Source of the DNA: Lysobacterales bacterium
Lineage (GTDB): Bacteria; Pseudomonadota; Gammaproteobacteria; Xanthomonadales; SZUA-5
DNA length: 64,000 nucleotides
Assembly: GCA_022844165.1 (NCBI GenBank)
Contig: JALHMH010000003.1
Coordinates: 128,001-192,000, forward strand
Reading direction: 5' to 3'
Part shown: in pieces, positions 10,761 to 42,379 of the stretch
How the letters are laid out: the number at the start of each line of letters is the position of its first letter
Numbering within the stretch: position 1 is the stretch's first letter
Notes under the pieces: generated by a model
What the model was told of the DNA's origin: nothing
The model's input: only the letters and a program-made list of their open reading frames with translations
Database searches by the model: none
Program-made: the position numbers and the translations under genes

Positions 10761-13550
10761 ATGAAGTTTTGGATTGGCGTGTTGTGGCTCGCGGTCGGGA
10801 CGACAGTCGCTGCGGCGCCGGGTCGATGGAGCAGCCAGGGGCCGTATGGTGGCCGCGTCGATAGTGCGATCGCCAACCCGCTGCAACCGGGCACGTTGTA
10901 CGCGACTTCGCATCGCAGCGTTTATCGCTCGAGCAACGGCGGCTCGACCTGGGTGTTTGCAGGTACAGGCTTGAATACCGTGAGCGACGGCGAAGCGATC
11001 GTTGTTGCGCACCCGACGATTCCCGGCCGATTGATGCTCGCCGGCGCCCGCGGCGTATTTCGCTCCGATGACAGTGGCCGCAACTGGCGCCGCAGTGATA
11101 CCGGGCTTCCTGTCGGTAACGCATCGTTTCGCAGCGTCGATATCGCCTATGTGCCCCAAGACGGCGAGAAGCTGTATCTGGCAACTCGCAGCGACGGTCT
11201 GTATCGCAGCAGCGACAGCGGCCAGAGCTGGAGCGTTTCGACGGCCCCTATCCCGGCCAACCTGGATCGGGTTGCGGCCGATCCCAACAATCTCGGAACG
11301 GTTTTGGTCTGGGCCGCCAACCGCGACACCAGTTCTTTTCCGGCCAGTCTTTATCGCTCCATCGATTTTGGCGTCTCGTTTTCCGCTCTAACCGGCCCGT
11401 GGAATAGCGGCGGTCCGATCGAAAGCAAGCTGGAGTTGCTGGCCTTCAACGGCAACACCGCCAACAGCATTTTTCTGGCGGGCGAGTTCGGCAACTTTCG
11501 CTCGCTCAATGGCGTGTCTTTCTCGAGCCTGCCGGTCAGCTCCGCGACGCAACGGCTGCAGAGTATCGCTTTTGGCAGCGTTGCGGGCCAGGCGATCTTC
11601 GGCACCAGCGAAGGCGTGCTGTCGACAACCAACAATGGCAGCAGCTTTACACCGCGCAATACCGGATTGAGCATCAACGGCACGGATCCGGTGTCGGTCG
11701 GCCCCATGGTGATCGATCCGACAAATCCAGCTCGTTGGCTCGCGTTTTCCGTTTCCGGCGATATTTTTGTGACCACCAACAGCGGCACCAGTTGGTCGCC
11801 CACCAATTTCGGCCTTCGTGGCACCGATATCGAATCGCTGGCGGTTCAACCGGGGCGACCGCAGCGCGTGCTGGCGGGTGTGCGTAATGAGCGCAGCGAA
11901 GCGACCTCGCCAGCGCTTTTTCAATCGGACGATTTTGGCGCAACCTGGGCGCGAACCAACACCAACCTGGTGCTCGATACCATCAATGGCCTCACCTACG
12001 ATCCGGTGAATCTGACGATGCCTGCCAACATGCGCGTTTACGCGGTGGGCGCCGATTTTGCGCCGTTAGGTCAGGCGTCAAATACCTACCGGGGCGGCGT
12101 TTTTGTCAGTACCAACTCGGGCCTGAACTGGGCTCCGGCCGACACGCTGGTGCCGACACTTTCAGGAGGCCCCAGTCAATTGGGCGAAGTGCATCAGTTG
12201 ATCGTCGATCCGACGGAGATCTCGGCTCAAGTCGCACAAAATCTGTACTTTGTGAACGATGGACGCATCACTTGTGGTCCAACGCCGAGTCTCGCCGTGG
12301 CGCGCGTCTGGCGCAGCGTCAATGGCGCAACGTCCTGGACGCCGATCGACAATCTGCCACTGGGCGTTTGCACGCCGCGCCAGCAATTTCCCAGGCCGTT
12401 TCACATCGTCTTCGGCCCGGTTTCGACCGCGAATGTTTTTGTCGGCACTCGCGTCGTCGGCTATGACCCCGGTAATCACCCGCTGCCCACCGTGCCAAAC
12501 GGCGTGTTTCGTACGAGCAACAATGGATCGACATGGACCGCCGCCAACAACGGCTTGCCGCGTATCGGTGGCGGCACTGGTAGCGTTTGGAACGTGACCG
12601 CGCTGCTGTCCGTGCCGGGTACCAATACGCTGTTTGTTGCGTTGCAAGACCCCAGTAGCGAAGCGATTCCAGGTCGCGTGTACAAATCGACGGACGGCGG
12701 CGACAACTGGATCCGCAGCGATTCGGGCATCGTCGGCAACGTCGTGCGTTCGTTGCGCGCCGATCCGATCGCGCCGATGAGAGTCTTTGCGGCCGCCACT
12801 GGTGTCGACACCAGCCCGGGCGGGGTATACGTCAGCGAAAATAGTGGCAGCTCATGGCTCTCGGTATCGATCGGTATGCCTGTCGACTCGGCAGCCGAAG
12901 TTGCGATATCGCGTCCGCCGTCTCCGGCGTCCCCGACGATCCATGCCGGCACCGCAGAGGGCGTTTTCAGCCTGACACGACTTCCAGACGACGACCAGGA
13001 CGGGCCGAGCGACAGTGACGAAGATTTGGCGCCGAACGCCGGCGATGGCAACAACGACGGAATATTGGATCGGCTGCAGCGCGATGTCGCGAGCATCGTT
13101 GAACCGACCCTTCTCCGTGGTGGCAAAGCGCGGGAAGGCACGCTGAGCGATATCGAACTGTTGCGAGGCGGCGGCAATTGCGACCAGTTGGTCGACGCGC
13201 ACTTCGTCGATGCCGAGGAGTTACCGACCGACTCGCAGTTTGTGTCGTATCCGCTGGCCGTTCGCTTCGAACAGGTCGATTGCGAGGCGGCTCAAATGCA
13301 ATTGATCCTGCACAATCAGGATTTGTCGGATGGACAATGGGTGTTGCGCAGGTATGGCCCAGTCAGTGTCGGCGACCCTCTGACTTTGCAGTGGCAAACC
13401 GTGTCTGGCGCGGTATTTGCGAGCAACCGCGTGGTATTCCCCCTGTTCGACAACGGCCCGGGCGATTTGCGCAGCGAGCCAGGGCGAACCTTGTACATTG
13501 TCGCCCCTGCCAGACGGAGTCTTTTTGCCGACGGTTTTGAGAGCCCGTAA
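10761..13550 (+). CDS. Secreted BNR/Asp-box beta-propeller protein (VPS10/GH74-like) with a choice-of-anchor-U-like C-terminal domain and LFADGFE tail
   Basis: Signal peptide MKFWIGVLWLAVGTTVAA; many (Y/F)RSxDxGxxW repeats; acidic DDDQDGPSDSDE..GDGNNDGILDRLQRDVAS segment; ends SLFADGFESP. Confidence 0.8.
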   Translation: MKFWIGVLWLAVGTTVAAAPGRWSSQGPYGGRVDSAIANPLQPGTLYATSHRSVYRSSNGGSTWVFAGTGLNTVSDGEAIVVAHPTIPGRLMLAGARGVFRSDDSGRNWRRSDTGLPVGNASFRSVDIAYVPQDGEKLYLATRSDGLYRSSDSGQSWSVSTAPIPANLDRVAADPNNLGTVLVWAANRDTSSFPASLYRSIDFGVSFSALTGPWNSGGPIESKLELLAFNGNTANSIFLAGEFGNFRSLNGVSFSSLPVSSATQRLQSIAFGSVAGQAIFGTSEGVLSTTNNGSSFTPRNTGLSINGTDPVSVGPMVIDPTNPARWLAFSVSGDIFVTTNSGTSWSPTNFGLRGTDIESLAVQPGRPQRVLAGVRNERSEATSPALFQSDDFGATWARTNTNLVLDTINGLTYDPVNLTMPANMRVYAVGADFAPLGQASNTYRGGVFVSTNSGLNWAPADTLVPTLSGGPSQLGEVHQLIVDPTEISAQVAQNLYFVNDGRITCGPTPSLAVARVWRSVNGATSWTPIDNLPLGVCTPRQQFPRPFHIVFGPVSTANVFVGTRVVGYDPGNHPLPTVPNGVFRTSNNGSTWTAANNGLPRIGGGTGSVWNVTALLSVPGTNTLFVALQDPSSEAIPGRVYKSTDGGDNWIRSDSGIVGNVVRSLRADPIAPMRVFAAATGVDTSPGGVYVSENSGSSWLSVSIGMPVDSAAEVAISRPPSPASPTIHAGTAEGVFSLTRLPDDDQDGPSDSDEDLAPNAGDGNNDGILDRLQRDVASIVEPTLLRGGKAREGTLSDIELLRGGGNCDQLVDAHFVDAEELPTDSQFVSYPLAVRFEQVDCEAAQMQLILHNQDLSDGQWVLRRYGPVSVGDPLTLQWQTVSGAVFASNRVVFPLFDNGPGDLRSEPGRTLYIVAPARRSLFADGFESP

Positions 13551-13618
13551 CCCAGAAGCGACCGCATTTCGAGCACTGCGGGCTGGTCGAAATCGGCGAC
13601 GAGGCGTAGCGTTCGCGT

Positions 13619-16330
13619 ATGAGCGAACGCCCAACCTTATCCTCTGTCACCTCAATCCAGCCGATGGATCCACCATCGCGGATCGCGCCGGTCAGCGGCT
13701 CCAATTCTGGCGGTGGCGGGCCGTCGGCCTGGATCGGCCGTGAGATCGATGGCTACCGAATTGTCCGCGCTATCGGCGCGGGCGGCATGGGTGTGGTGTT
13801 TTTGGCCCAGCAGCAGCATCCAAAGCGTCATGTTGCGATCAAGACCTTGCATGCGGGCTTCCACCAGGCCGAGCTGCTGGCGCGTTTCCAGCAGGAGGCC
13901 GAAATTCTGGCGCGCTTTACGCACGTTGGTATTGCGCAAATCTATGCCAGCGGCTGTACCAATGAAGCGATGGGGAGCGTGCCCTACATCGTCATGGAAT
14001 ATGTCGAGGGCGTGCCGCTGCTGGAGGCCTGCGCTGCGCTGGATATGCGCGAACGGCTGAATTTGCTGCGGCGAGTCTGCGAGGCGGTCGAACATGCGCA
14101 TATTCGCGGCGTTATCCATCGCGATCTGAAACCCGGCAACATCTTGGTGCAATCCGACGGCCAGCCGAAGGTGCTCGACTTCGGCGTCGCTCGCCTTTCC
14201 GGCAATGAAGAGCGTGGCGGTAGCGACCTGACCACCGCCGGCATGGTGATTGGCACGATCGCCTACATGAGCCCCGAGCAAGCGATGGGCGAACCGGGCG
14301 CTGTGGATATCCGCACCGATGTGTATGCGCTCGGCATGATCGGCTATCGCATGCTGACCGGCGATTTGCCGTACGAGGTCACGGGACACAATATCGGCCA
14401 CGCCCTGCAACAAATTTGCGACGTCGCGCCAACGCCGTTGTCCCGTTACGACCGTCGATACGCTGGCGACCTGGAGACGATTTTTCAAAAAGCGCTGGCG
14501 AAAGAGAAAGACAACCGTTATCGCAACGCCGCTGAGCTCAGCGAAGACTTGCGACGCTACCTCGATGATGAGGCGATTTTGGCGCGACGGGCCAGCGTAT
14601 TCGCCGACGTACGGCGCTTTGCGCGTCGCAATCGAGCCTTGTTTGCGGCCGGGATCTTTGCGTTCGTGGCGTTGCTGTCGGCGGTCGCCATCAGCACGCG
14701 ATTTGCGATCCGCGAACAGGCGCAACGCATCGAGGCCGATACCGTCGTGAGCTTCTTGCGCCGAATGCTGTCCAGTGCCAATCCGGTGTTTGCGCAAGGA
14801 CGCGACGTCACGATCCGCGAGGCGATGGATGCTGCCGCGCCTGATCTGGAGTCGCAATTGGCGCAGGTGCCGGCCGCGCGCGGGCGGCTGCGCGCAACGT
14901 TGGCGGATACCTATCATGCCCTCGGCGATCTGCCGCGAGCGATCACCTTCTACGATGCAGCAGCAAGCGACTTCACGGCCGCTGGAATCGATGGCCCTGA
15001 GCATCGGCAAACGATCTTGGGCAAGGTCGAAGTCTTGCTCGACCGTGGCCAGGCGCTCAACGCCCAAATCTTGCTTGATGCATTAGAACCTTTGCGCACC
15101 GTTCCAACCAGTAGCCTGGACGCCAGAACTGCGATTTTCCGGGCAAGAACGCGAGAGGATTTCGGCGACATCGATGCCGCATTGGGCGAACTCGCGGCGT
15201 TGCGTAACGTTGATCTGTCGAAGCTCTCTTGCGAGGACTGTCGACCCGATTGGCGCGCAGCGCTCGATGTCGAAGCGCGCATCATTTCGGCGTCGCTGCT
15301 TCGCCAGAATGAGCAGTTCGACGAAGCCTTGGATATCGCGCAGGCCGCATTTAGCCTCGCAAATGAAACGCTCGGTCCATCTCATCCGATGGCGCTGAAA
15401 GCGGCCATCGAACTGGCGAACTCATTGGACGACAGTGGTCAGCGCGATCAAGCGCTGGCCGTTGCCGAAACCGCAGTTCAAGAACGTCGACGCCTGCTCG
15501 GCGCTACGCACTACCAGACATTGACAGCGCTCAACAACCTGGCGCAAATTCACGAGTCGGTTGGCGATGGCGCGACGGCGAAGCGTCTACTGGTCGAAGC
15601 GCACGAGTTGGCCGAGGCGCAGCTGCAAGACCACGAACTGTGGGCACAGATCACGCATAACCTGGGCCGCATCGAATACCTGGCAGGAAACATCGACCGC
15701 GCGCAGGCGTTGTTGAACGACGCTTATCGTTGGCGACAAAACAAGCTCGGGTTAAGTCACCCGGACACGCTGAACAGCGCCTTGGCTTTGAGCGTGGTGT
15801 ACTCGACACGCAATGAGTACGACAAAGCACTGCCTCTGCGCGAGTCCGCGATTCGCGGGTACGAAGCGCGTTTTGGAACGGAACATCGGGACACGTTGGC
15901 GGCGCGATCCGAGTACGCAGCGCTGCTGCGCAATATGGGCAACTTCGACGCGGCGGACGCCGAGTTCAAATCTGTACTGAGCGCGACGGAACGACTTTTC
16001 AAGCCCGGCGACAGCGAACGAATGCGCGTCCTCTACCAGTATGCCGGCTCGCTGCAGCGCCAGGAGAAATGGCGCGAGGCCGAGAGACTAAGTCGTCAGT
16101 TGATGGACGAAGCAGCGCTCACGGCCGATACCGACGCGCAGCACGCGTTGTTGGCGCCTCTACGCCACGCTCGCTCGCTCATGGGCCTGCGACGCTACGA
16201 CGAGGCTGAGTTTTTGCTGGAGAACCTGGAGAAACAGCTTGGCGCCGAGCATCAGGTGCAAATGCGCGAGATGACCAGCCAGACCCTGGCCGAATTGCGC
16301 GCCGCGCGCGCCGCGCGTGCCGCACAGTGA
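13619..16330 (+). CDS. Hanks-type Ser/Thr protein kinase with a TM segment and C-terminal TPR repeats
   Basis: GAGGMGVV, VAIK, HRDLKPGN, DFGVA, YMSPEQ, DVYALG; TM ALFAAGIFAFVALLSAVAIS; repeats LGxxHPxTL...NNLA. Confidence 0.95.
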   Translation: MSERPTLSSVTSIQPMDPPSRIAPVSGSNSGGGGPSAWIGREIDGYRIVRAIGAGGMGVVFLAQQQHPKRHVAIKTLHAGFHQAELLARFQQEAEILARFTHVGIAQIYASGCTNEAMGSVPYIVMEYVEGVPLLEACAALDMRERLNLLRRVCEAVEHAHIRGVIHRDLKPGNILVQSDGQPKVLDFGVARLSGNEERGGSDLTTAGMVIGTIAYMSPEQAMGEPGAVDIRTDVYALGMIGYRMLTGDLPYEVTGHNIGHALQQICDVAPTPLSRYDRRYAGDLETIFQKALAKEKDNRYRNAAELSEDLRRYLDDEAILARRASVFADVRRFARRNRALFAAGIFAFVALLSAVAISTRFAIREQAQRIEADTVVSFLRRMLSSANPVFAQGRDVTIREAMDAAAPDLESQLAQVPAARGRLRATLADTYHALGDLPRAITFYDAAASDFTAAGIDGPEHRQTILGKVEVLLDRGQALNAQILLDALEPLRTVPTSSLDARTAIFRARTREDFGDIDAALGELAALRNVDLSKLSCEDCRPDWRAALDVEARIISASLLRQNEQFDEALDIAQAAFSLANETLGPSHPMALKAAIELANSLDDSGQRDQALAVAETAVQERRRLLGATHYQTLTALNNLAQIHESVGDGATAKRLLVEAHELAEAQLQDHELWAQITHNLGRIEYLAGNIDRAQALLNDAYRWRQNKLGLSHPDTLNSALALSVVYSTRNEYDKALPLRESAIRGYEARFGTEHRDTLAARSEYAALLRNMGNFDAADAEFKSVLSATERLFKPGDSERMRVLYQYAGSLQRQEKWREAERLSRQLMDEAALTADTDAQHALLAPLRHARSLMGLRRYDEAEFLLENLEKQLGAEHQVQMREMTSQTLAELRAARAARAAQ

Positions 16331-17268
16331 GCGATCATCCGTTTGCGGCCCTGACGCCAGACGTTGTGCTCGATGCCGCAGAGCGGCTTGGCGTTCACTG
16401 CGATGGTCGGTTGCTGGAGCTCAACAGCTTCGAAAACCGAGTGTTTCGGGTCGGCGTGGAGAACGGCTCGCCATTGATCGTCAAATTCTACCGGCCGCAG
16501 CGCTTCACAAGCGATGCGATCCACGAAGAACATGCGTTCTTGCGCGAACTGGCCGACGCTGAGCTGCCTGTTGCCCCGGCGCTCGGTTCGCCGAGCCTGC
16601 TACCGGTCGATGCCGCAGGCGTTGCTTTCATGGCTGCGCTGTTCCCATGCCTGCCAGGTCGCAGCGCCGACCTGGAATCGGCGGACAATCTGGCCTGGCT
16701 CGGTCGCTTGATCGCGCGTATGCACATCGTCGGCGCTCGATCGCGCTTTGAGCATCGGGCGACGTTGACACCTGCGCTCGCTCGCACGGCGCTCGATGCG
16801 GTGATCGGCGGCTTACTGTTGCCGGAGCATTTGGGCTCACGCGCTCGCGAGTACGGTTCGCAGCTCACGTCGCGCATCGAAAAACTCTGGGCCGATGCTG
16901 GTTCCTGCGCCAGGCTGCGGTTGCACGGCGATTTACATCGCGGCAACTTGTTGTGGAACGAGGGTCCGTTGCTCGTCGACTTCGACGACGCAGTAAACGG
17001 ACCTGCGGTGCAAGACCTGTGGATGCTGCTTCCCGTCGACGATGAAAGCGCCCTTGAGGCACTGCTCGAAGGCTACGAGACGTTCCGACCCTTCGACCGC
17101 AGCGAGTTGGCGCTCATCCCGGCGCTGCGCGCGATCCGTCGCCTGCATTTCGCCGGTTGGCTGTCGCAGCGATACGCCGATCCGGCTTTTCCCCGAGCCT
17201 TTCCGTACGCCGCAGGCGCACGCTTCTGGGAGGAGGAAGTGAACGACTGGCGCGAACTGTGCTCTTGA
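16327..17268 (+). CDS. srkA: Stress response kinase SrkA/RdoA
   Basis: HPFAALTPDVVLDA, LNSFENRVF, KFYRP, LRLHGDLHRGN, VDFDD, GPAVQDLWMLL, DPAFPRAFP. Confidence 0.93.
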   Translation: MSDHPFAALTPDVVLDAAERLGVHCDGRLLELNSFENRVFRVGVENGSPLIVKFYRPQRFTSDAIHEEHAFLRELADAELPVAPALGSPSLLPVDAAGVAFMAALFPCLPGRSADLESADNLAWLGRLIARMHIVGARSRFEHRATLTPALARTALDAVIGGLLLPEHLGSRAREYGSQLTSRIEKLWADAGSCARLRLHGDLHRGNLLWNEGPLLVDFDDAVNGPAVQDLWMLLPVDDESALEALLEGYETFRPFDRSELALIPALRAIRRLHFAGWLSQRYADPAFPRAFPYAAGARFWEEEVNDWRELCS

Positions 17269-17357
17269 ACCACGCCACGTTCACCATCAGAGGCCGACAT
17301 TGCCCTTCGCGCGGTTAGCCGCTATCACTGCACGACCCCCTTCTCGAGCATCGCCCC

Positions 17358-18338
17358 ATGAAACTTGCCTCCTTGAAACGCGGCGGCCGCGACGGCACGC
17401 TGATTGTCGTCAGTCGAGATCTGACACGCGCTGTTGTGGCCGACGCCATCGCCCCGAGTTTGCAAGCTGCGCTGGACGAGTGGCAGTACGCCGCGCCGCG
17501 ATTGAATGCACTCAGTGAGCAGTTGAATACGGGTCGCGTAGAGAATTCGTTCGCCGTCGATGTCGACGATCTTGCCGCGCCTTTGCCCCGCGCCTACGAA
17601 TTCGTCGACGGTAGCGCTTATCTGCCGCATGTCGAACGGGTGCGGCGCGCGCGGAATGCAGAGGTGCCGCAGAGTTTTTACGTCGACCCGCTGATGTACC
17701 AGGCGACCAGCGCGCAATTCATGGGTCCCAGCGATCCGGTGCGCGTGGTCAGCGAGGACTATGGCATCGATCTGGAGGCCGAAGTGGTGATCGTCACCGA
17801 CGATGTGCCGATGGCGATCAGCGCAAAGGCGGCGATGGACCATATTCAACTGATTGGCCTGGTGAACGACGTCAGTTTGCGCAATCTGATTCCCGACGAG
17901 CTGGCCAAGGGGTTTGGTTTTTTGCAATCCAAGCCACGCTCGGCGCTTTCGCCGGTATTGGCGACGCCCGATGAGCTGGGCGCCTATTGGCAACAGGGCA
18001 AACTGCACAGACGCCTGATCACGCACATCGACGGCGAACTATTTGGGCAACCAGATGCGGGCAGCGATATGCAGTTTGACTTCGCGCAACTGATTGCACA
18101 CGCCGCGAAAACCCGAAATCTCCTCGCCGGCACCATCGTCGGATCCGGTACGGTGGCCAACCAGGATGAGTCCGTGGGCGCATCCTGTCTTGCGGAGAAG
18201 CGGATGCTTGAAGTGATCGCCAGTGGCAAACCCACCACGCCGTTCTTGCGCTTCGGCCAACGCGTGCGCATCGAGATGTTCGACGATGCAGGCAGCAGCC
18301 TATTTGGCGCCATCGATCAGGAGATCGTGCGCTATTGA
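17358..18338 (+). CDS. Fumarylacetoacetate hydrolase family protein
   Basis: MKLASLK.GGRDGTL.VVSRDL, PLPRAY..DGSAY..HVE.VR, IDLEAEV, NDVSLRNLIP.EL.KGFGFLQSKP. Confidence 0.93.
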   Translation: MKLASLKRGGRDGTLIVVSRDLTRAVVADAIAPSLQAALDEWQYAAPRLNALSEQLNTGRVENSFAVDVDDLAAPLPRAYEFVDGSAYLPHVERVRRARNAEVPQSFYVDPLMYQATSAQFMGPSDPVRVVSEDYGIDLEAEVVIVTDDVPMAISAKAAMDHIQLIGLVNDVSLRNLIPDELAKGFGFLQSKPRSALSPVLATPDELGAYWQQGKLHRRLITHIDGELFGQPDAGSDMQFDFAQLIAHAAKTRNLLAGTIVGSGTVANQDESVGASCLAEKRMLEVIASGKPTTPFLRFGQRVRIEMFDDAGSSLFGAIDQEIVRY

Positions 18339-18384
18339 TGGCTAAAAAGACCACGAACACCGAACGCGCTTTTTTGCGCGACGG

Positions 18385-19737
18385 TTACCGCAGCACCAGC
18401 TCCGGCCAAACTGCAAGGAGTACCAACATCGACAATTGAATGACGATGAACGGCACGACGCCTCGATAAATGGCGCCGGTCGAAAGCTCTGCTGGTGCGA
18501 CGCCGCGCAGGTAAAACAGCGCGAAACCAAAGGGCGGCGTCAGAAATGACGTTTGCAAATTCATCGCGAACAGGACGCCAAGCCAGACAGGGTCGACACC
18601 GAGCGCCAGCAACGGCGGCGCGACCAGCGGCACGACGATAAAGACGATTTCGATGAAATCGATCAAGAAGCCGAGCAGGAAAATCGTCAGGTTGACGATG
18701 ATCAGCGCACCCACCACGCCACCGGGCAAACCGGTCAGCGCTTCGTGGATGTAGTCGTCTCCGCCGTAGCCTCTGAACACCAGCGAGAACAATGTCGCCG
18801 CGATCAGAATCATGTACACCATCGACGTGATCAGCGCGGTACGTTCGGCGGTCTCGCGCACCCCGCGCCAGGACAGTTCGCCGCCGATTGCCGCCAGTAC
18901 GGTGGCGCCAACCGCACCGATGGCGGCGGCCTCGGTCGGCGTCGCGATTCCAGCCAGAATGGAACCCAATACCGCCAACACCAATGCCATTGGCGGTACC
19001 AGCGCTTGCAGCGCTTCGAGCACACTGGCATTGCCTCGCATTTCGGCCGGCAATGCCGGCGCCCGTTGCGGCTGGAGCCATGCGACGCCGATCAGATAAG
19101 CGAGGTATCCGCCGACGAGCACCAGACCTGGTAGCAATGCGCCGGCGAACAGATCGCCCACCGAAACCGACTTGGGCGAAAACAGGCCCTGATCGAGTTG
19201 CGCTTTTTGATAGGCGTTGCTGAGCACATCGCCCAGCAAAACCAGGATCACCGACGGCGGGATGATCTGACCCAGCGTGCCAGCCGAGCAGATCGTGCCC
19301 GCAGCGAGCTTCGGGTCGTAGCCAGCACGCAGCATCGTCGGTAGCGCGATCAGACCCATCGTGACCACCGTGGCGCCGACGATGCCAGTGCTGGCCGCCA
19401 GCACCGCACCAACCAACAGTACGGAAATCGCCAGGCCGCCACGCAGCGACCCGAACAAAGTGGCCATCGATGTCAACAACCGCTCGGCAATTTTCGAGCG
19501 CTCCAGCATCACGCCCATGAACACGAATAGCGGCACGGCGAGCAAGGTTTCGTTGCCCATCGTGCCGAAGAGGCGGTTCGGAAAGGCATCCAAAAAGCTC
19601 GCGTCGAAGGTGCCTGTCAGGATGCCGATGCCGGCAAAAGCGAGCGATACGCCCGCCAGCGTAAACGCTACCGGCAGGCCCAACAGCAACGCTGCAGCCA
19701 GCGCGAGAAACAACAGCAAAGGTAGAAAGGCTTGCAT
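18385..19737 (-). CDS. dctM: TRAP transporter large permease DctM
   Basis: GLPVAFTLAG, LLAVPLFVFMG, AASTGIVGATVVTMG, GTLGQIIPPS, ATPTEAAAIG, NLQTSFLTPPFGFALFYL. Start at MQAFLP. Confidence 0.95.
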   Translation of the reverse strand: MQAFLPLLLFLALAAALLLGLPVAFTLAGVSLAFAGIGILTGTFDASFLDAFPNRLFGTMGNETLLAVPLFVFMGVMLERSKIAERLLTSMATLFGSLRGGLAISVLLVGAVLAASTGIVGATVVTMGLIALPTMLRAGYDPKLAAGTICSAGTLGQIIPPSVILVLLGDVLSNAYQKAQLDQGLFSPKSVSVGDLFAGALLPGLVLVGGYLAYLIGVAWLQPQRAPALPAEMRGNASVLEALQALVPPMALVLAVLGSILAGIATPTEAAAIGAVGATVLAAIGGELSWRGVRETAERTALITSMVYMILIAATLFSLVFRGYGGDDYIHEALTGLPGGVVGALIIVNLTIFLLGFLIDFIEIVFIVVPLVAPPLLALGVDPVWLGVLFAMNLQTSFLTPPFGFALFYLRGVAPAELSTGAIYRGVVPFIVIQLSMLVLLAVWPELVLR

Positions 19738-22521: not shown

Positions 22522-22525
22522 CGCC

Positions 22526-24707: not shown

Positions 24708-24715
24708 GACTTGAC

Positions 24716-34370: not shown

Positions 34371-34703
34371 TCACTTGTTCGCTTCGTCCAGGTTGGCAAA
34401 AATCGGAAAGACGCGGTCGAGACGGGCCAGTTCGAGCACAGCGTGCACGGGTTTGCTCACCGCAACCAGATTGAACCGTTGCCCTTTGCCGCGGGCATTC
34501 TGAAAACCCTCGACAAGCGCCGCGATCCCGGAGGAATCAATGTACGTGACTTGCGACAGGTCCACGGCTACAGGCCGGCCGGTCGCCAGTGCATCGAGGA
34601 TCGTCTTGCGCAGACGCTGCGACCACGACAAGTCGACCTCGCCGCTGACGCGAACGAGCTTAAAGCCTTGCTGATCTTCGGTGGCGCAATGATTCTGAGT
34701 CAT
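34371..34703 (-). CDS. STAS-domain anti-sigma factor antagonist (RsbV/SpoIIAA-like)
   Basis: VSGEVD, VDLSQVTYIDSSGIAALV (phospho-Ser motif), VLELARLDRVFPI. Confidence 0.92.
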   Translation of the reverse strand: MTQNHCATEDQQGFKLVRVSGEVDLSWSQRLRKTILDALATGRPVAVDLSQVTYIDSSGIAALVEGFQNARGKGQRFNLVAVSKPVHAVLELARLDRVFPIFANLDEANK

Positions 34704-34886
34704 GGTTCGCGGCTGGCAAAAAGTAAATGTCGATAGCGATGGAGTTCACCTGGCGAGCGCGTGCCAAAAGGCGCCAGAATGACTTCGCTGACCTCCGGCG
34801 CCTACACTAGGCTATGAAGCGTCAAAGGTAAAAGGTCAAAATGCCAATCCTGCGCTCGGCTTCCTATCGCTTTGCCGCCGCGCACG

Positions 34887-36539
34887 CTACGGCAGACGTT
34901 TGACCATTCTCAACAAGTTGCCACCGCCGTCGGGTCGCAGGAATGTCCACTCGTCCATCACCGAATCGATCAGGTTGATGCCCAGGCCGCCCGGGCGACA
35001 CTCGCTCAGGTCCCTGGGGCGAATGCGAGTGGCGTCGACGGGCGATGCGAAGTCGCGCAGTTCGAAACGTACCGCGCCTGGATCAAGCCAAAACGAGAGC
35101 TCGACGCGCCCATCGATGCTGCCGCCATAGGCGTGGCGAATGACATTGGCGACGGCTTCGTCGACACTCAGGACCAGGCGTTGCCGTTCGGTCTCGTTGA
35201 AACCCAAACCCACGACAATATCGCTGACCGCACGGCGCACCAGACATAGGTTTTGAGGGTCGCTCAGACCGCCCATGCCGCCGAGATAGCGCGTTGGCGC
35301 GTCGTCATCTGCAAGCAACATCAATGTGGTGTCATCCGCCAGAGCGAGCTTTCGCAAGTGCCCGACCATCGCCCGCACTCGCGCCCGCGGCGACACGCCT
35401 GCCACGCGTTTGATCAAATCGCGAACGCCGTCCATGCCGATCGGCCGGCGATCCGGGCCACGTACATCGGTGACGCCATCGGAAAAAGCGTACAACGAAC
35501 CGCCCGCGAGCGCGAGACGTTGTGCGTCGTACCCGGTGTCCTTGAGGATTCCCAACGGCGGGCCGTCGGCCGGTATCTCCCGGAACCGGCCGTCGCGATA
35601 CAGTAACAGTGGTGGGAAGCCCGCAGAGGCCAGCTCAATCTGGCTGGTGTTTCGGTCCAGGTAGCCAACCAGCGCGCAAACGAACATCCCGCGCGTGACG
35701 GTTTCGCATAACTCCTGATTGACCCGCGACAGCCACACGCCGGGCGTGGCGCCGTCCTTGCCAGCCCAGCGTAAACAGCTCGACGCGCGCACCATCAGAA
35801 GCGCGGCGTCCATACCCTTGCCGGCCACATCGCCGACACAGAATGCTATCCGACCATCGTCGACCTCGAAGTAGTCGTAGAAGTCGCCGGAAATCTCGCG
35901 CGCAGGCAGATTCATTGCAACGATCGGAAGATCGCGGCGGCGCGGCGGCAACAGCGTCTTTTGCATTTGCCGCGCAAGCTGGAATTCGCGTTTGATTCGG
36001 TTCTGCTCGACCAGCTCACGCGACAAACGGGCATTGTTCAAGGCCAGGGCGGTCGGGACCGCGAGCAGGCGCAACACGTCGGCATCATGCGTATCGAACA
36101 AGGCGCCGTCGCGTTTGTTCAGTACCTGCAAAGCGCCAATCGGTCCGTTGGCGCTGTCCAGCGGCGCGCTCAAGATCGAGCGCGACAGGAATCCGCGCTG
36201 ATTGCCCAGAAAGTCAGGATCACGGGTGGTATCGCGAACCAATTGAACGCGATTCTCGGCAATCGCTCGACCGACGATGCCCTTGCCGCGTTCGACGCGA
36301 AGGCCCACCACATCAACCGGCCCGGCGCTCGCGCGGCAAACGCTGCTGCCGTCCTCATCGACCAAAAAAACCGCCGCCGCTTCGGCATTCATGTATTCGG
36401 CGATCTGCGCCACGGCGCGTCGCAGGGTCTCGTCAATATCCAACGTCGCCGCGAAGGCGTGCGAAAAATCGGCAAGGATGCCGACCTCCTCGGCACCGAT
36501 ACTGCGATCCCGCGCCGACACGGCCGTTGGCAGTGTCAC
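34887..36539 (-). CDS. GAF + SpoIIE/PP2C phosphatase + RsbW-type HATPase fusion
   Basis: GTG start overlaps the pssA stop (GTGA); GAF IGALQVLNK..FD..D; PP2C PAREISGDFYD, GDVAGKG, SAGFPP, SDGVTD, DDTTL; HATPase_c_2 DEAVANVIRHAY, GGLGINLIDSVMD. Confidence 0.92.
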   Translation of the reverse strand: MTLPTAVSARDRSIGAEEVGILADFSHAFAATLDIDETLRRAVAQIAEYMNAEAAAVFLVDEDGSSVCRASAGPVDVVGLRVERGKGIVGRAIAENRVQLVRDTTRDPDFLGNQRGFLSRSILSAPLDSANGPIGALQVLNKRDGALFDTHDADVLRLLAVPTALALNNARLSRELVEQNRIKREFQLARQMQKTLLPPRRRDLPIVAMNLPAREISGDFYDYFEVDDGRIAFCVGDVAGKGMDAALLMVRASSCLRWAGKDGATPGVWLSRVNQELCETVTRGMFVCALVGYLDRNTSQIELASAGFPPLLLYRDGRFREIPADGPPLGILKDTGYDAQRLALAGGSLYAFSDGVTDVRGPDRRPIGMDGVRDLIKRVAGVSPRARVRAMVGHLRKLALADDTTLMLLADDDAPTRYLGGMGGLSDPQNLCLVRRAVSDIVVGLGFNETERQRLVLSVDEAVANVIRHAYGGSIDGRVELSFWLDPGAVRFELRDFASPVDATRIRPRDLSECRPGGLGINLIDSVMDEWTFLRPDGGGNLLRMVKRLP

Positions 36540-37294
36540 GCCGCAGCTCCACGTTTGCGCAATCGACGCCATGCCCACATGGCCGGGCCGCTGGCGATGT
36601 AAACAAGACCAATGACCAGCAGCATCGAGGGCGGATGCGCAGCCACCGGGATGATGGCGAGAATGGTCAGCAACACCCAGAAGAAGGGCACACGCTCGGG
36701 CCAGACCTTGAAGCTGTAATACGGAATGCGACTCACCATCAGCAATGCCAGGGTCATCGTCAGAGCCAGCGCGAACCAGCGGGTACCCGTTCCGAATACC
36801 GAGAAGTCCTCCATCGCCCAAACGAAAGCCATCAGCGTGCCGGCGGCCGCAGGACTGGCCAGGCCGGTGAAAAAACGCTTGTCGCCGCTACCAGCCTGAG
36901 TATTGAAGCGCGCCAGACGCAACGCCGCGCAGGCCGCGTACAAAAAAGCGATCAGCCAACCCAGTTTGCCAGCGAAATTGCCATAGCTGCGAAGGTCAGC
37001 GAGCGCCCACATATAAACAATGAGCGCCGGCGCCAGTCCGAAACTGATCAGGTCCGACAGCGAATCGTATTGCACACCGAATTCGCTTTGAGTATTGGTC
37101 ATACGCGCGACGCGGCCATCCAGACCGTCGAACAACCCAGCCACGAAGACCGCAACGACGGCAGCAACGAATTGCTCGTTGATGCCGGCAACGATGGCAT
37201 AGAAGCCGCTGAACATCGCGCCCGTGGTCAGCAGGTTCGGTAGCAAGTAAATGCCGGGCGGCCGCCGCTTTTGGTCGGTATCGGATTCAGTCAT
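36536..37294 (-). CDS. pssA: CDP-diacylglycerol--serine O-phosphatidyltransferase
   Basis: GIYLLPNLLT, DGLDGRVARMTNTQSEFGVQYDSLSDLISFGLAPA, ALRLARFN, FTGLASPAAAG. Confidence 0.96.
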   Translation of the reverse strand: MTESDTDQKRRPPGIYLLPNLLTTGAMFSGFYAIVAGINEQFVAAVVAVFVAGLFDGLDGRVARMTNTQSEFGVQYDSLSDLISFGLAPALIVYMWALADLRSYGNFAGKLGWLIAFLYAACAALRLARFNTQAGSGDKRFFTGLASPAAAGTLMAFVWAMEDFSVFGTGTRWFALALTMTLALLMVSRIPYYSFKVWPERVPFFWVLLTILAIIPVAAHPPSMLLVIGLVYIASGPAMWAWRRLRKRGAAA

Positions 37295-37403
37295 GCGCGG
37301 TCGAACGCCAGTTAAAGAATGTGGTCATTGTATCGCCACGACCAGTCGATGTTGTCGTAAGCTGTAGCAATCGCTTTGTTAGCACAAACAAAAGGAGCTT
37401 GCC

Positions 37404-37814
37404 GTGCGCATCGTTGCCGCCATCGCATTGACGCTGTTCGCTGCCGGTGCTCTCGCGCAAGACGCGAGTCCGACGCAGGATGCCAACAAGGTGTACAAGT
37501 GGACCGACGAAAACGGGACTGTGCATTTTTCGCCGAAACCCCCGGAGAACAACAAGGCCGAAGAAGTGGCGCTGCGCAAGGGTCCAGCTGTGGTCGTGCC
37601 GACGGGTCCGACCGAAGAAGAGATGATTGCCAAACGCTGCAAACAACATGAAGAAAATCTGGCTCTGCTGGCCGACAAAGAAAAAACCTTGACCATCGGC
37701 GATGGCGCCAACAAGCGCGAACTGACGGCCAAAGAGCGTGACGACCAGTTGGCGATCGCCAAGGCCTCTCTTGAACTATGCCGGTTGACGAAGGCTGCCC
37801 CGACCACACCGTGA
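37404..37814 (+). CDS. DUF4124 domain protein
   Basis: AAGGAG RBS; signal peptide; VYKWTDENGTVHFSPKPP; Cys pair in the helical C-terminus. Confidence 0.88.
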   Translation: MRIVAAIALTLFAAGALAQDASPTQDANKVYKWTDENGTVHFSPKPPENNKAEEVALRKGPAVVVPTGPTEEEMIAKRCKQHEENLALLADKEKTLTIGDGANKRELTAKERDDQLAIAKASLELCRLTKAAPTTP

Positions 37815-37822
37815 CGCTCGTC

Positions 37823-38104
37823 ATGCGTCAACGCGGCGGCGCTGGGCTGTGGGTTCTTTTGGCGCTCGCGCTTGCCGCAGTGGGGTTCGCATGGTGGCGA
37901 TTTTTCCCAGATTCGCTGCCCACGACCGTACGCCAGGTGACGCCACCGTCCCCAACTTCAAGCCCCGTGCTGTACAAATGGCGGGATGCCAAGGGCAACC
38001 TGAATTACACCGACACACCGCCGGCAGATCGGCCGTTCGAAAAGGTGCAGATTGACCCAAATACGAATGTGTTGCCTTCCGGTGTCGCACCTGAGCCGGG
38101 CTGA
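37823..38104 (+). CDS. DUF4124 domain protein, membrane-anchored
   Basis: N-terminal TM; LYKWRDAKGNLNYTDTPP..PFEKV.IDPNTN. Start GTG 37811 or ATG 37823. Confidence 0.85.
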   Translation: MRQRGGAGLWVLLALALAAVGFAWWRFFPDSLPTTVRQVTPPSPTSSPVLYKWRDAKGNLNYTDTPPADRPFEKVQIDPNTNVLPSGVAPEPG

Positions 38105-38234
38105 TCGGGCGCACGCTGGTCGCGGTAAGGCAAGGGCCGTACACGAAGTTCGTGCGTCAGGCGCCGCCCGTTGAGGAGCGGCGCCGTCCCATGAAAACGG
38201 AAACTCCGCTTTAGGCGCCGGCTCCGCCGTCACC

Positions 38235-40820
38235 TCATTCAAAACCGTTCTGGAACAACGCATCGTTGTTCGCGGTCGGCAAAGGCCAAACCCACGCACC
38301 GCGCGAACGTGTCCACACAGCGAGCGTTGTGAAACCGCGATCGATGGTCACATCCCAGATCATGACGTTCGGCAGCCCAAGGTGCTTTTGCCAGACCACG
38401 GGATTCGCTTCGACGTCGTCGGTGTAATAAAGCCCCCAGTCGGAACCGGCGAACACTTGGGTGGGACGGTTTGGATTGACGATGACGCTATTGACCGGGA
38501 TGTTCGGCAAGTTACCGGAGACATCGCGCCAGACGAAGCTCGCGCAGTTGACGGTGCATTTGACCTGAAACACATGACCCGGCGTCGTGGGTGTGTTCTG
38601 GTCGAAACCGGCCATCACCGCGTAACCGATCAACGGATCGACGGGGTCGGTGGCGACATCAAGCACGAAGCGGTTCGGCAGCACGGTGTTGTTACCGGTG
38701 ACGTTCACCCAGGTCGCTGAATTGGCGATGTTCTGGCCCATGTTGAAGCCGAACCAGACGTTGCCATCATTGGTGCCGGCGATGGCGACATCAGGCGTGT
38801 TGACTGCATAGGCGACCTGATTAATGAACGAACGGTCGCCCAGGGTTCCCTTGGTCAGATCAGGACTGTTCGGTACCCAGCTTGACGTTGGAATGCCACC
38901 CGACACCGATTCCCAGACGCGGAAACTACCGGCAATGATCCTCCCGCAGCCGGTGGCAGCCGGGCAGCCGGTGGTTTCGCCACCAAACCGATACAGATCG
39001 AAGTTGGTCAGAAAGCTCTTGCGATCGCCGCCCCAGCCGCTCGGTGCCGCGGCAACGGTGGACGTGCCACCCAGGCCACCGCTCGCGCTGGTCGTCGCCA
39101 CGATGTTGCCGCTCTGGCTGGAGTAGTACCAGCGCTGCTGCAAGATGGGTTCAATCGTGCTCCAAATGCCGTCGCCACCGTTTCTTGAGAACCATCGTGC
39201 CGCTCCAATGCTGCTGCCCGGCCATGTCGCGACCATGCACGAATTGTCCTGCGCGCCACCGACCGCACTGACGTTGGCCGACGTGTTGAAGTTCGGTGTG
39301 ATGCCGCCGGAGTAGAACTCGATTGTGTTGAGCGTTTCGTTCAGCGAGGTCCACGTGGGACTGCTGGCCAATGCATTGGGTGCGTAATAAACGCCACCAT
39401 CGGTGCCAATCAGCAGCCGGTTTGGATCGCCCAGCACAAAAGCGAGCGCATGGTGATCGACGTGCGGCAGTGTGCCAGTGCCGACGAAACTGCTGCCGCC
39501 GTTGGTCGACCGAAAAGTGCGGAATGCGCTCAGGAAAACATTGTTGGAATTGGTGGGGTCGACCAGCATGCCAGCGTTGTACCAACTCTGCGTACCGGCG
39601 CCGGTGATGTTGCCGACTTGCGGCTGGGTCCAGTTAGCGCCGCCGTCGATGCTCTTCCACACCCCCAGAATCGTAGCAGAGTTGTTCGGCACGGCCACCT
39701 GCGCATAGATGATGTTCGGGTCGGTCGGCGAACCGGCGATATCGATGCGACCCAGCGGATTGGGTGTGCTGACGTTGCCCGCGGCCGTGCCGGCCGGCCA
39801 GCCGTTGTCGGCGCGTGAGATGGTGGTAAACGTCGGGCAACCGCTGGCTGGGACGGTGGCGCTGTAAAGACCATTCGCGCCATTGCGTTCCAGCCCCGTT
39901 TGCACCGTTGTCGCGAACGCACGCACGCCGACAGAGGCGACGATGCGCGTCGTTGCACCAAGATCGGTCAAGATCAATCCGGTGATGTCCTGGCGCTGAC
40001 CGGGAAACGCATTCGTGGGGCAGGCACCGGTCCAGGTGTCGCCGCCATTGTAAGAAATGTACAGTCCGGTCTTGGCACCAACGATAACGATATTGGAATT
40101 GTTCGGATCGACCTCGACCTTGCCGATGGCCTGATATTGCGGTGGCGCGTTGACGTTTGGCGCATAAAACGGATTGAACACATCTGCGCCCTTCACCGTC
40201 CAGGTCTCGCCACCATCCACCGATTTCAACACGCCATTCGAGCCAAAGGAGAACGAGCCATAGCGCAGATCGCCAGTACCGGCGTACAGCACGTCGGGGT
40301 TGTTTGGATCGATCGCCATGGCGCCGATGGCGCTGTTTTGGATCGGTTCGGTGGTCGCTGAGATATCGGTTGTGTTACGCCAGGTCGTCGCCGCGCTGCA
40401 GCAGTTGGTCGTTTTCCAAACGCCGCCGCCGTCCGAGCCCATCCAGGCGATGGCCGAATCGGTTGGATGGGTGATGATCACGTTCGTGCGCCCGGCAAAA
40501 CCGCCGCCAGTACCCAATGGCCGTGGCCCGAGCGGCGTGAACACGTTCGGCGGCAAATTGCCGCTCCCGCGGAAGGCCTCAATACCCTGTGGCAAGGCCT
40601 GATTGACCTGTGCAGCCTCTTGCGCGGCGTCTATCAGCCAGCTGGGACTAAAGTGCCCGGTCGGATAGGTGGCGCGGTCGCCCCAGAACGGACCCAGATA
40701 AGCTTCCTTGGCGAGCTTGCCGGTGAGCGGCACCGGATCTGCCACCGTCGCGACCTTGGGTGAAGACGCACACGACGCCAAAACAGCGGCGGCAAGAACA
40801 AAAAATGATGTTCGGAACAT
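38235..40820 (-). CDS. Lipoprotein BNR/Asp-box beta-propeller (GH74/VPS10-like) with DALFQNGFE tail
   Basis: Lipobox VLASC after MFRTSFFVLAAA; LYAGTGD, KSVDGGETW, QSWYN, PHVDHH, GTDGGVY, GDG, SGNLPNIPVN, GLPNVMIWD, TRSRGAW; ends NDALFQNGFE. Confidence 0.85.
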   Translation of the reverse strand: MFRTSFFVLAAAVLASCASSPKVATVADPVPLTGKLAKEAYLGPFWGDRATYPTGHFSPSWLIDAAQEAAQVNQALPQGIEAFRGSGNLPPNVFTPLGPRPLGTGGGFAGRTNVIITHPTDSAIAWMGSDGGGVWKTTNCCSAATTWRNTTDISATTEPIQNSAIGAMAIDPNNPDVLYAGTGDLRYGSFSFGSNGVLKSVDGGETWTVKGADVFNPFYAPNVNAPPQYQAIGKVEVDPNNSNIVIVGAKTGLYISYNGGDTWTGACPTNAFPGQRQDITGLILTDLGATTRIVASVGVRAFATTVQTGLERNGANGLYSATVPASGCPTFTTISRADNGWPAGTAAGNVSTPNPLGRIDIAGSPTDPNIIYAQVAVPNNSATILGVWKSIDGGANWTQPQVGNITGAGTQSWYNAGMLVDPTNSNNVFLSAFRTFRSTNGGSSFVGTGTLPHVDHHALAFVLGDPNRLLIGTDGGVYYAPNALASSPTWTSLNETLNTIEFYSGGITPNFNTSANVSAVGGAQDNSCMVATWPGSSIGAARWFSRNGGDGIWSTIEPILQQRWYYSSQSGNIVATTSASGGLGGTSTVAAAPSGWGGDRKSFLTNFDLYRFGGETTGCPAATGCGRIIAGSFRVWESVSGGIPTSSWVPNSPDLTKGTLGDRSFINQVAYAVNTPDVAIAGTNDGNVWFGFNMGQNIANSATWVNVTGNNTVLPNRFVLDVATDPVDPLIGYAVMAGFDQNTPTTPGHVFQVKCTVNCASFVWRDVSGNLPNIPVNSVIVNPNRPTQVFAGSDWGLYYTDDVEANPVVWQKHLGLPNVMIWDVTIDRGFTTLAVWTRSRGAWVWPLPTANNDALFQNGFE

Positions 40821-41086
40821 AGACGGCGACCTGGGGGGCGAACGAGTCGCTGAAGTTTGCATGTCGACTCGACATCCAGCAAGTGCTAAGCCCTCGTTGG
40901 CGCCCGCGACCGACCTGACGCCCGGAATGTGCCAGCTCCGAGGTTGAAAACAACTGGGTTCAAGGCGCGTCGCACCCTGTCCCCACGCGGGATCCACTCC
41001 CGTTATCCAACGTGTCATCGCCAGCCATCGCAATGTGGGTTCTACTCGCGGGGTGTTGTGTTGGTCAGGTCAGCCGGGAACGTTTA

Positions 41087-42379
41087 ATGAACACTCTTTT
41101 GCTCTTCGCCGCCGCGACCTTTGCAGGTGGCGACTATCAGGTCACGACGCGAAACATCCAGTCCAGTGGCCAGGCGCGCAGCTTCGTTTTGGCCACGCCA
41201 ACTTCGGGCGCCACCGGCAAACCGCTGGTGTTTGCTCTGCATGGCGACAATGGAACCGGTGCGGGCATGCGCGCGTCTTTGCCCTTGGAGGCGGCAGCCG
41301 CTGGCGCCGCGGTGTTTGTTTATCCGAACGCAGCAAGCAACAATACTTTTGAGTATTTCTCGGCGATCGGGCGCTCTCGCGAAGTGCAGTTTGTGCGCGA
41401 TGTGGTGAACCTGTTGCAGGCCGAGATCAACATCGACCGCAATCGCGTGTTCCTGAGTGGATTTTCGGGCGGTGGCACAATGGCGAACATCCTGGGCTGC
41501 CGCATGGGTTTCCCGGAAATCCGCGGGCTCGCGGTCAACGCCGGTTCCCTCTATCCCATCGATGGCGACTTCACCTACACGGGCAATGGCGGTGTGAGCT
41601 GCGCGATGCCGGCAACCATGTTGCTCTGGGGCGAATCGGACAACACGCCCAACGTCAGTTACGCAACTGGCGTCAGCATACGCAATAACCTCACGGCGAC
41701 GCACACCTGCAGCGCGGCGACCGCCGCTTTCTCGCCAACCCCGTGCGTCACCTATAACGGCTGCCAACGCGATGTCGGCTGGTGTTCTGTCCCAGGTTTG
41801 GGGCACTCGATCTGGAACCAGGCTGCCAGCGCCTCGTGGGCGTTCTTCAATCGGCAAAGCGGCGGACTTGCGCCGGTCAATCAAGAGATCTACGTGGATT
41901 CCCTGACTAACGGCTGGGAGAACTTCTCCTGGGGCGTTGTCGACTTCGCCAACACGAGCGCACCGCATGCGGGCAACACGGCGATTCGATTTTCGGCGCA
42001 TAGTTTCCAGGGATTGTCCTTTGCCAAACCAGGCGCCGCAATCAGCGCCGCGCAGTTCCCGGAGATTCGTTTTTATATTCGTGGCAGCGCGGGCGGCGAG
42101 AACTTCAATGTGTCGCTGCAAACGGGGTCAACATTGCACACCAATGTGCCGTTGGCGCAGTTCGTCGCAGGCGGCAGTGTCGCCGCGGGTAGTTATCGTG
42201 AGGTGCGAATTCGTATCGCGCAAGCGCCCATGAACTACACAGGCAGCTTTGAGCGCATCAACATCCAAGACGCCACAGGCGCCTCGGCGGGCGCTCCGCA
42301 AGTCGTGTTCGTCGACACTGTCGCGCTGATCGCAGCCGCCGATCTCCCCGACGCCTTGTTTGCTTCAGGGTTCGAATAA
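41087..42379 (+). CDS. Secreted alpha/beta hydrolase (PHB depolymerase/LpqC/CE1-like esterase) with a CBM-like domain and DALFASGFE tail
   Basis: PLVFALHG, FVYPNA, IDRNRVFLSGFSGGG (GxSxG), WGESD, GLGHSIW; C-terminal IYVDSLTNGWENFSWG beta-sandwich; ends PDALFASGFE. Confidence 0.85.
   Translation: MNTLLLFAAATFAGGDYQVTTRNIQSSGQARSFVLATPTSGATGKPLVFALHGDNGTGAGMRASLPLEAAAAGAAVFVYPNAASNNTFEYFSAIGRSREVQFVRDVVNLLQAEINIDRNRVFLSGFSGGGTMANILGCRMGFPEIRGLAVNAGSLYPIDGDFTYTGNGGVSCAMPATMLLWGESDNTPNVSYATGVSIRNNLTATHTCSAATAAFSPTPCVTYNGCQRDVGWCSVPGLGHSIWNQAASASWAFFNRQSGGLAPVNQEIYVDSLTNGWENFSWGVVDFANTSAPHAGNTAIRFSAHSFQGLSFAKPGAAISAAQFPEIRFYIRGSAGGENFNVSLQTGSTLHTNVPLAQFVAGGSVAAGSYREVRIRIAQAPMNYTGSFERINIQDATGASAGAPQVVFVDTVALIAAADLPDALFASGFE

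Follow-up and report, generated by a model that had tools for sequence, protein, structure and literature searches.

To our knowledge, every bacterial C-terminal sorting signal described to date is a tripartite signal embedded in the membrane or else a folded domain. The tripartite signals (LPXTG/sortase, PEP-CTERM/exosortase, GlyGly-CTERM/rhombosortase, MYXO-CTERM/myxosortase, and IPTL-CTERM) place a shared short motif on many unrelated exported proteins, and the C-terminal domain (CTD) of type IX secretion system (T9SS) cargo is a folded domain of some 70 to 100 residues. We analyzed a 64,000-nucleotide stretch of a Lysobacterales genome (GenBank assembly GCA_022844165.1, contig JALHMH010000003.1, positions 128,001 to 192,000; hereafter, the window) in which three exported proteins end in nearly the same C-terminal peptide, here called the tail or GFE tag. 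Like the tripartite signals, the GFE tag is a short motif shared by many unrelated exported proteins, is restricted to one lineage, and stands behind "choice-of-anchor" domains. Unlike them, it has neither a hydrophobic transmembrane helix nor a basic cluster, as an earlier note made from the sequence alone had remarked: tagged proteins close with Glu, or with Glu followed by residues that include S, P, G, or N, and the stop codon comes zero to four residues after the motif. It also differs from them in being conserved away from the C terminus. The GFE tag is real, strongly selected, and previously undescribed, and it marks the exoproteome of one order; a docking or sorting motif read by a receptor is its likeliest role, at about even odds in our judgment.

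The source genome, G000, comprises 4.68 Mb in 59 contigs (genomes compared carry G numbers; f2 and f7 are families in the same order). The tagged genes of the window and their tails are as follows (aa, amino acids; PHB, polyhydroxybutyrate).

10761..13550, forward strand: tagged gene 1, 929 aa, with a Sec signal peptide, a BNR/Sortilin-type beta-propeller, an acidic linker, a C-terminal domain, and the tail
13521..13547, forward strand: tail of protein 1, LFADGFE, separated from the stop codon by two more residues, SP
38235..40862, reverse strand: tagged gene 2, a lipoprotein with the lipobox LASC, a beta-propeller-like body, and the tail
38238..38258, reverse strand: tail of protein 2, LFQNGFE, flush with the stop codon
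41087..42379, forward strand: tagged gene 3, 430 aa, with a signal peptide, a PHB-depolymerase-type esterase, a beta-sandwich, a short linker, and the tail
42356..42376, forward strand: tail of protein 3, LFASGFE, flush with the stop codon and disordered in the AlphaFold2 model

Protein 1 begins with the export signal MKFWIGVLWLAVGTTVAAAP, matches the Sortilin-Vps10/BNR family in its body (4e-25), and ends in ...RRSLFADGFESP, with the stop codon at 13548-13550 (forward). Protein 2, the start of which we set at the ATG at 40862 (alternative ATG at 40820), has the lipobox VLASC followed by ASS, shows a weak match to the same Sortilin-Vps10/BNR family in its body, and ends in ...NDALFQNGFE (stop at 38235-38237, reverse). 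In protein 3, the signal peptide MNTLLLFAAATFAGG is followed by a PHB-depolymerase-type esterase match (2e-22) and then by a beta-sandwich without a family match; the protein ends in ...PDALFASGFE (stop at 42377-42379, forward). The translations thus bear out the near-identical C-terminal motif that the earlier note had pointed to in these three open reading frames (ORFs), and the ends are as it described them, apart from a trivial offset: positions 13521-13550 span LFADGFESP and the stop, not RSLFADGFESP and the stop. The statement that the other proteins of the window end differently also held, as these three were the only ORFs of at least 60 aa ending in GF[ED] plus at most four residues in all six frames of the window. 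A "choice-of-anchor-U-like" domain had been assigned to protein 1; NCBIfam gave no such match at an E value of ≤0.1.

The tail is matched by no model in Pfam or NCBIfam, and the last 40 residues of the three window proteins gave no NCBIfam match at an E value of ≤10. Two NCBIfam models, NF053834 (ultrashort_CTERM; 10 positions) and NF050076 (sort_motif_YLP; 11 positions), rest on the same idea, a C-terminal tag of roughly ten residues that lacks a membrane anchor, but they differ from the GFE tag in sequence; they gave four and one noise matches, respectively (E values no better than about 1), and no tagged gene was among them. A full-text literature search returned no description of the motif, matches to the letter string being to unrelated words; supplementary secretome tables lay outside that search.

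Across the six-frame ORFs of G000 (n = 44,320), the pattern [ILVMF]F..GF[ED] matched 90 times, with 47 matches flush with the stop codon and a further 13 within four residues of it. In a broader count, with F, L, or H permitted at position -6 and ORFs of at least 100 aa, the exact motif closed 59 ORFs, or 75 when up to four trailing residues were permitted. The tag is borne by about 1.5 to 2% of the G000 proteins. Among 3,780 coding-like ORFs, GFE was the most frequent C-terminal tripeptide (54 observed versus 0.53 expected), and the second-ranked tripeptide occurred 17 times. The 59 tails follow the consensus D-x-[LVIM]-[F/L]-[A/R]-[N/D/S]-G-F-E: Asp is found at -9 in 30 of them, any residue at -8, L, V, I, or M at -7 in all 59, F or L at -6 in 58, and Ala at -5 in 34, followed by N, D, or S at -4 (38, 13, and 8 tails) and then by G, F, and E.

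Conservation is at the level of the peptide and not of the DNA. Synonymous codons vary at every tail position in G000, all three stop codons follow the tails (21 TGA, 14 TAG, and 12 TAA), and the DNA 3' of the tagged genes is unrelated and without conservation, which shows that selection acts on the peptide. The same three observations rule out an artefact of a DNA repeat or a mobile element.

Two kinds of local similarity were seen in the DNA around tagged genes. A GC-rich hairpin-like element (…GCGCCGGTGAAAACCGGCGGAGTG…) lies 3' of the stop in at least five tagged genes (C8:117323-117360 and contigs C32, C53, C28, and C2) and is probably a dispersed REP (repetitive extragenic palindromic)-like or terminator element. 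A 703-aa ORF on C32 and a 177-aa ORF at the end of contig C53, both tagged, are identical over their final 40 residues and nearly so in the DNA downstream; this pair is a recent duplication or an assembly repeat.

The carriers of the tag are exported proteins with diverse bodies. By a crude home-made heuristic, 39 of 45 tagged ORFs were signal-peptide-like, compared with 1115 of 3735 others (30%; odds ratio, 15; P = 5e-15 [by Fisher's test]), and each of the three window proteins carries a Sec or lipoprotein signal peptide. The 59 tagged proteins fell into 40 BLAST clusters, and the last 80 residues before their tails fell into 51. Family scans were run on 72 of the 75 tagged proteins (the three longest were excluded for size), and Pfam assigned them to 47 families (E value of ≤1e-5), none with more than five members. 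Enzyme families included M12B, S8, S9, and M14 peptidases and esterases, and nonenzyme families included beta-helix, DUF5122 and Sortilin propellers, FG-GAP, and Ig-like domains; the tagged proteins are mainly secreted hydrolases and adhesin-like propellers. The genome-wide enrichment among signal-peptide proteins that the earlier note had proposed to look for is therefore present, and its description of a short, portable element on Sec-exported proteins with different bodies fits the signal-peptide, BLAST, and Pfam counts. These carriers also set the tag apart from two other C-terminal signals. Type I secretion signals reside on cargo that leaves the cytoplasm in a single step and has no N-terminal signal peptide, unlike most GFE-tagged proteins, and the beta-signal of outer-membrane proteins is a terminal aromatic residue on a beta-barrel, whereas the GFE tag ends in Glu on soluble hydrolases and propellers.

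The most frequent NCBIfam match in the tagged proteins was the choice-of-anchor Q domain (8 of 72), and in a distant homologue with a GFE tail, P0090, a choice-of-anchor-J-like domain immediately precedes the tail (27.6 bits versus a cutoff of 30). "Choice-of-anchor" denotes domains of surface proteins that precede one of several alternative anchors (10.1101/2023.03.06.531300). Because such domains precede the tail, the tail occupies the place that sorting signals hold in other lineages. The GFE tag does not replace the conventional class of C-terminal sorting signals; it is an additional system, since G000 separately encodes a handful of tripartite ends, which we take to be IPTL-CTERM-like, with an IPTL/IPV motif, a hydrophobic helix, and RRR (e.g., ...IPTLDRWSLLVLLL...RRR).

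Contigs C25 (1343 aa and 295 aa), C26 (2640 aa), C7 (347 aa), C6 (576 aa), and C51 (344 aa) of G000: IPTL-CTERM-like ORFs

The tail is retained among orthologues. A search with protein 3 returned 38 full-length proteins (query included; 56 to 100% identity), all of them tailed, 37 with GFE and 1 with SFE, some with one to three extra residues; the linker of 8 to 12 residues preceding the tail drifted in sequence and length. The C-terminal region of protein 1 kept its tail in 16 of 16 returned proteins (query included; 44 to 100% identity), with the endings GFE, GFESP, or GFENP. In the AlphaFold2 model of protein 3 (37 sequences; mean predicted local distance difference test [pLDDT] score, 89.9), the final beta-sandwich strand extends to residue 415, and the tail (residues 424 to 430) is disordered, with a pLDDT of <50. 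Had the tail been an integral strand of a shared folded domain, as the earlier note allowed, the idea of a portable signal would have failed; the disordered tail and the 51 upstream clusters among 59 proteins exclude such a strand. One decayed ending was seen: the protein 1 orthologue of G033, a genome with five tags, ends in ...DLIFADGLQ (L132; G033:C7:114580-120438, a 1088-aa ORF on the reverse strand). This single case may reflect a loosening of the motif in a genome that is losing the system.

To follow the tag across relatives, we searched genomes with a degenerate DNA pattern for F-x-[N/D/S/G]-G-F-E-stop and with a reversed-pattern control. The pattern was present in 36 of 39 genomes of the order (control, 0 to 1 matches). 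G000 and all 22 other genomes of its family were tagged, with 13 to 60 copies each, and the maximum, up to 75 copies, was found in a genome of another family. Three of the 39 genomes had no match, namely, G023 and G034 (both f2) and G028 (f7), all 99 to 100% complete, and searches with proteins 1 and 3 found no orthologue of either in these three. Outside the order, more than four matches were found in none of 298 class genomes evenly sampled outside G000 and f2 (controls, up to 2); the class sample includes the unpublished genome G074, on which no claim rests. The restriction of the tag to one lineage, present in 36 of 39 genomes of the order and beyond four matches in none of the 298 others, suggests a lineage-specific partner. 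One cultured, named species, Ahniella affigens, has the tag, on its protein 3 orthologue; a search of named genomes with protein 3 gave one close relative only, a Lysobacterales metagenome-assembled genome. Some distant homologues have a longer ending, ...IFxDGFE-[S/G/A]-G-[D/N]-T-x-x-W-S..., and this longer form (GFE-x-G-[D/N]) was not enriched in the 301-genome class sample (0 to 1 per genome).

The motif is usually terminal, as the earlier note had it, but not strictly so. In two G000 proteins, the full motif comes right after the signal peptide (e.g., ...ATPAQA followed by DAVFANGFEG...). Copies between modules usually lie beside a Pro-rich linker, as in an AA10 lytic polysaccharide monooxygenase followed by LLFANGFE, an FN3 domain, and a GH18 domain; in another form, a subtilase or BNR protein is followed by LF(M/Q)DGFEDPVP and a C-terminal domain of 215 residues. 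Among 13 relatives in which protein 3 is fused to a GH5 or GH18 domain, five were examined, and in all five the linker contains the motif. Further internal copies in G000 were found inside an RHS-type protein and in a loop of two paralogues.

Two ORFs with the internal motif and DPVP, of 1144 aa (C33) and 1044 aa (C1), share the domain of about 215 residues, which ends in ...WIIDN[IV]E[LV]KRCN at the stop codon. This ending resembles the stretch before the tail in P0090.

The loop copies were informative about position. A search with the loop family returned 13,054 relatives among 1.84 billion representatives, and we compared the 147 top-ranking hits alignable in this region. A tight beta-hairpin of 22 to 29 residues (RWFELRRTGG..W.L.QEGTYAP) was present in 144 of them, and the three with an insertion at the hairpin tip all bore the motif (ELFANGFE, GLFSDGFE, and LVFRSGFE) between diverged flanks. 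In the AlphaFold2 model of the loop protein (mean pLDDT, 89.7; predicted TM-score, 0.87), the hairpin strands span residues 408 to 418 and 439 to 446, and the tip insertion (residues 420 to 433) is a disordered excursion with a pLDDT of <50. Since conserved copies follow signal peptides, lie in linkers, and sit on a hairpin tip, a free C terminus and its alpha-carboxylate are not essential for the motif, which behaves as a self-contained, exposed linear module. This tolerance of position makes docking or recognition a better fit than a sortase-type signal.

It likewise speaks against the transpeptidase among the readers that the earlier note had suggested. Such an enzyme, sortase- or PorU-like, would cleave within the motif (e.g., after the [N/D/S] residue) and join the protein to an envelope molecule. 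The tag does occupy the slot of sortase-type signals, with choice-of-anchor domains and matches to the rhombosortase- and myxosortase-dependent M36 families among the carriers, and most genomes of the order encode PorU-like C25 peptidases. However, there is no transmembrane helix or basic tail, a leaving group of three residues is all that cleavage would release, copies occur internally and near the N terminus, and four tag-bearing genomes of at least 94% completeness, including a closed one, have no C25 match. We consider a covalent sorting signal very unlikely. Cutting without joining, in which an envelope or extracellular protease would separate modules or trim ends at the motif, accords with copies at module boundaries beside Pro-rich linkers and right after signal peptides, and secreted peptidases are abundant (up to eight C25 proteins per genome). 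On the other hand, 59 copies are flush with the stop codon, with nothing left to remove, the hairpin-tip copy lies within a folded domain, and C25 peptidases do not track the tag, which makes a processing site quite improbable.

The mechanism that we favor starts from a short, flexible, solvent-exposed linear motif on extracytoplasmic proteins, nearly always as their last residues. After Sec export and folding, a conserved component of the envelope or the extracellular space would bind the motif noncovalently. A tight [N/D/S]-G turn would cluster the aliphatic residue with the two aromatic ones next to the acidic end. Binding would then retain the protein at the surface or on vesicles or pass it to an outer-membrane export step, and the tag would act as a receptor-read address peptide, unlike a membrane-embedded sortase signal. 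In its full form, in which the tag is the cargo half of a new sorting system, a position-independent peptide read noncovalently by a dedicated envelope receptor, this proposal is possible but doubtful. Further likenesses lie outside the bacterial sorting signals. The peroxisomal targeting signal PTS1 (-SKL) and the endoplasmic reticulum retrieval signal (-KDEL) are very short terminal peptides that are read by receptors on unrelated cargo in eukaryotes; the GFE tag is similarly short, unstructured, terminal, and carried by many unrelated cargos, and noncovalent reading is what we propose for it. It differs from both in kingdom, compartment, and sequence and in tolerating internal positions. 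Dockerins, folded calcium-binding modules of about 70 residues with cohesin partners, resemble the tag as portable modules on secreted hydrolases that are mostly C-terminal and sometimes N-terminal or internal, but the tag is a peptide of seven to nine residues.

Several points weigh against receptor reading. Internal copies are few in G000 (about 8 to 10 versus about 60 to 75 terminal ones), and those in linkers may, by analogy, be relics of gene fusion, an origin that has been proposed for an internal MYXO-CTERM (PMC11980579). The copies on the hairpin tip and after signal peptides are inexplicable as fusion relics. The proposed turn is deduced solely from residue preferences, and both AlphaFold2 models show disorder. 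The signal-peptide enrichment depends on a home-made heuristic. Finally, no reader was found among the candidates that we examined: nothing recurred around the six tagged genes of G026 (a closed genome of 2.4 Mb), and each of three candidate readers showed the unfavorable or mixed distribution detailed below.

The first candidate was the C25 peptidase family (PF01364), the one family covered by our profiling of sorting enzymes. Here the tag resembles the T9SS: proteins exported via Sec in Gram-negative bacteria are labeled at the C terminus, and PorU-like C25 peptidases are common in the order (matches in 32 of 39 genomes; two genes in G000). It is unlike the T9SS CTD in consisting of seven to nine disordered residues and in that C25 presence does not track the tag. 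No C25 match was found in the tag-bearing genomes G026 (closed), G027, G037 (27 tags), and G038, all at least 94% complete, nor in G007 (86% complete), and C25 is present in the tag-free genome G028. On the absences from the four more complete genomes and the presence in G028, a PorU-like C25 peptidase was rejected as a tail-processing enzyme or general partner. Giant C25 proteins of the gingipain/PorU type are expanded in the order, with up to eight matches per genome and open frames of up to ~3,400 aa; the G000 loci are L001 (C10:107326-111372) and L002 (C11:9538-13563), and the model matched none of 14 control genomes. G023 and G034 also lack a C25 match.

The second candidate was the secretion system of type II (T2SS). 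The motif could be a T2SS recognition signal, an exposed peptide shown to the PDZ domain of GspC or to the secretin vestibule before the protein crosses the outer membrane. The carriers are Sec- or lipoprotein-signal proteins of T2SS cargo classes (esterases, M12B/S8/S9/M14 peptidases, beta-helix proteins, and propellers), GspC in these bacteria ends in a conserved PDZ domain, and recognition of folded cargo would tolerate varied motif positions. Proteins with MYXO-CTERM and GlyGly-CTERM tags pass the outer membrane via the T2SS (PMC11980579). The phyletic pattern is mixed. Neither GspL nor GspC was found in the two f2 genomes G023 and G034 (reported as 100% complete), which have no tags, and this much agrees with the secretion-channel reader suggested in the earlier note. 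Two genomes do not match it. Tag-free G028 has both GspC and GspL, and in G029 (98% complete) neither was found, by the family models or by a query with G000 GspC, although five of its six pattern matches are genuine protein ends, at least three of these with visible signal peptides. In G030 (26 tags), GspL was found but again no GspC. Such absences are soft, as the markers are insensitive (the GspL model matched 2 of 14 control genomes). A structure prediction that paired the GspC PDZ domain with protein 3's beta-sandwich and tail scored 0.00 against a mark of 0.32; the tool returned "no answer," which counts neither for nor against binding. With this pattern across G028, f2, G029, and G030, the T2SS was set aside as the necessary and sufficient partner; it is not sufficient and perhaps not necessary. 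We regard direct recognition of the motif by the T2SS as unlikely, and by analogy the T2SS is still the most plausible route across the outer membrane.

The third candidate came from the neighborhood of tagged gene 1.

13619..16330, forward strand: membrane Ser/Thr kinase (TPR region at the C terminus), located 63 bp downstream from tagged gene 1

G000 encodes 31 paralogues of this kinase, several of them paired with ECF (extracytoplasmic function)-sigma-like genes, and kinases lie near tagged genes more often than other genes do: 7 of 31 are within 500 bp of one, compared with 45 of 939 other long genes (4.8%; P = 5.5e-4 [by a binomial test]). Kinase/sigma cassettes were the only recurrent neighbors of tagged genes in G000. 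TPR kinases are, however, present in all three tag-free genomes (28 matches in G028), none was found in the examined flanks of the tagged loci of G029 and G033, and in G026 one lies near one of six tagged genes. Presence in the tag-free genomes and absence near the G029 and G033 loci argue against these kinases as periplasmic readers; they are probably regulators of neighboring exoprotein genes. With three candidates failed or mixed in phyletic pattern and neighborhoods without a recurrent partner, the earlier note's remark that no machinery is recognizable extends from the window to these comparisons.

The failure of several tests to yield a partner is what one would expect if there were no dedicated reader. 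The tag would then have a physicochemical role, for example, as an acidic cap against periplasmic tail-specific proteases, which prefer apolar C termini, or as an aromatic and acidic patch held on lipopolysaccharide via divalent cations. The peptide does end in Glu, often with Asp at -9 (30 of 59). A cap would hardly need five near-invariant positions, including Gly and two aromatic residues, in at least 10 families of the order; internal copies are conserved between diverged flanks; and the motif is confined to one order, whereas its proposed targets are universal. We rate a role without a reader as improbable.

What is new here is the position tolerance of the motif, including its graft onto a hairpin, its genome-wide statistics in G000, its distribution across the order and the class together with the tag-free lineages, the two AlphaFold2 models, and the mixed or negative profiles of three candidate readers. 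If receptor reading is correct, an unstructured tag of seven to nine residues, functional also in loops and linkers, would represent a new addressing principle of Gram-negative bacteria beyond the inner membrane, a prokaryotic counterpart of PTS1 and KDEL that is mechanistically distinct from every sortase-type system. The receptor would set the release, surface retention, or vesicle loading of some 60 to 75 exoproteins per cell. The tag would also be an easy sign by which to predict exoproteomes in metagenomic data and would give a very small portable label for secretion or surface display in these bacteria. It occurs across nearly all of an order that lives in soil and water, where it marks a share of the proteome similar to that in G000.

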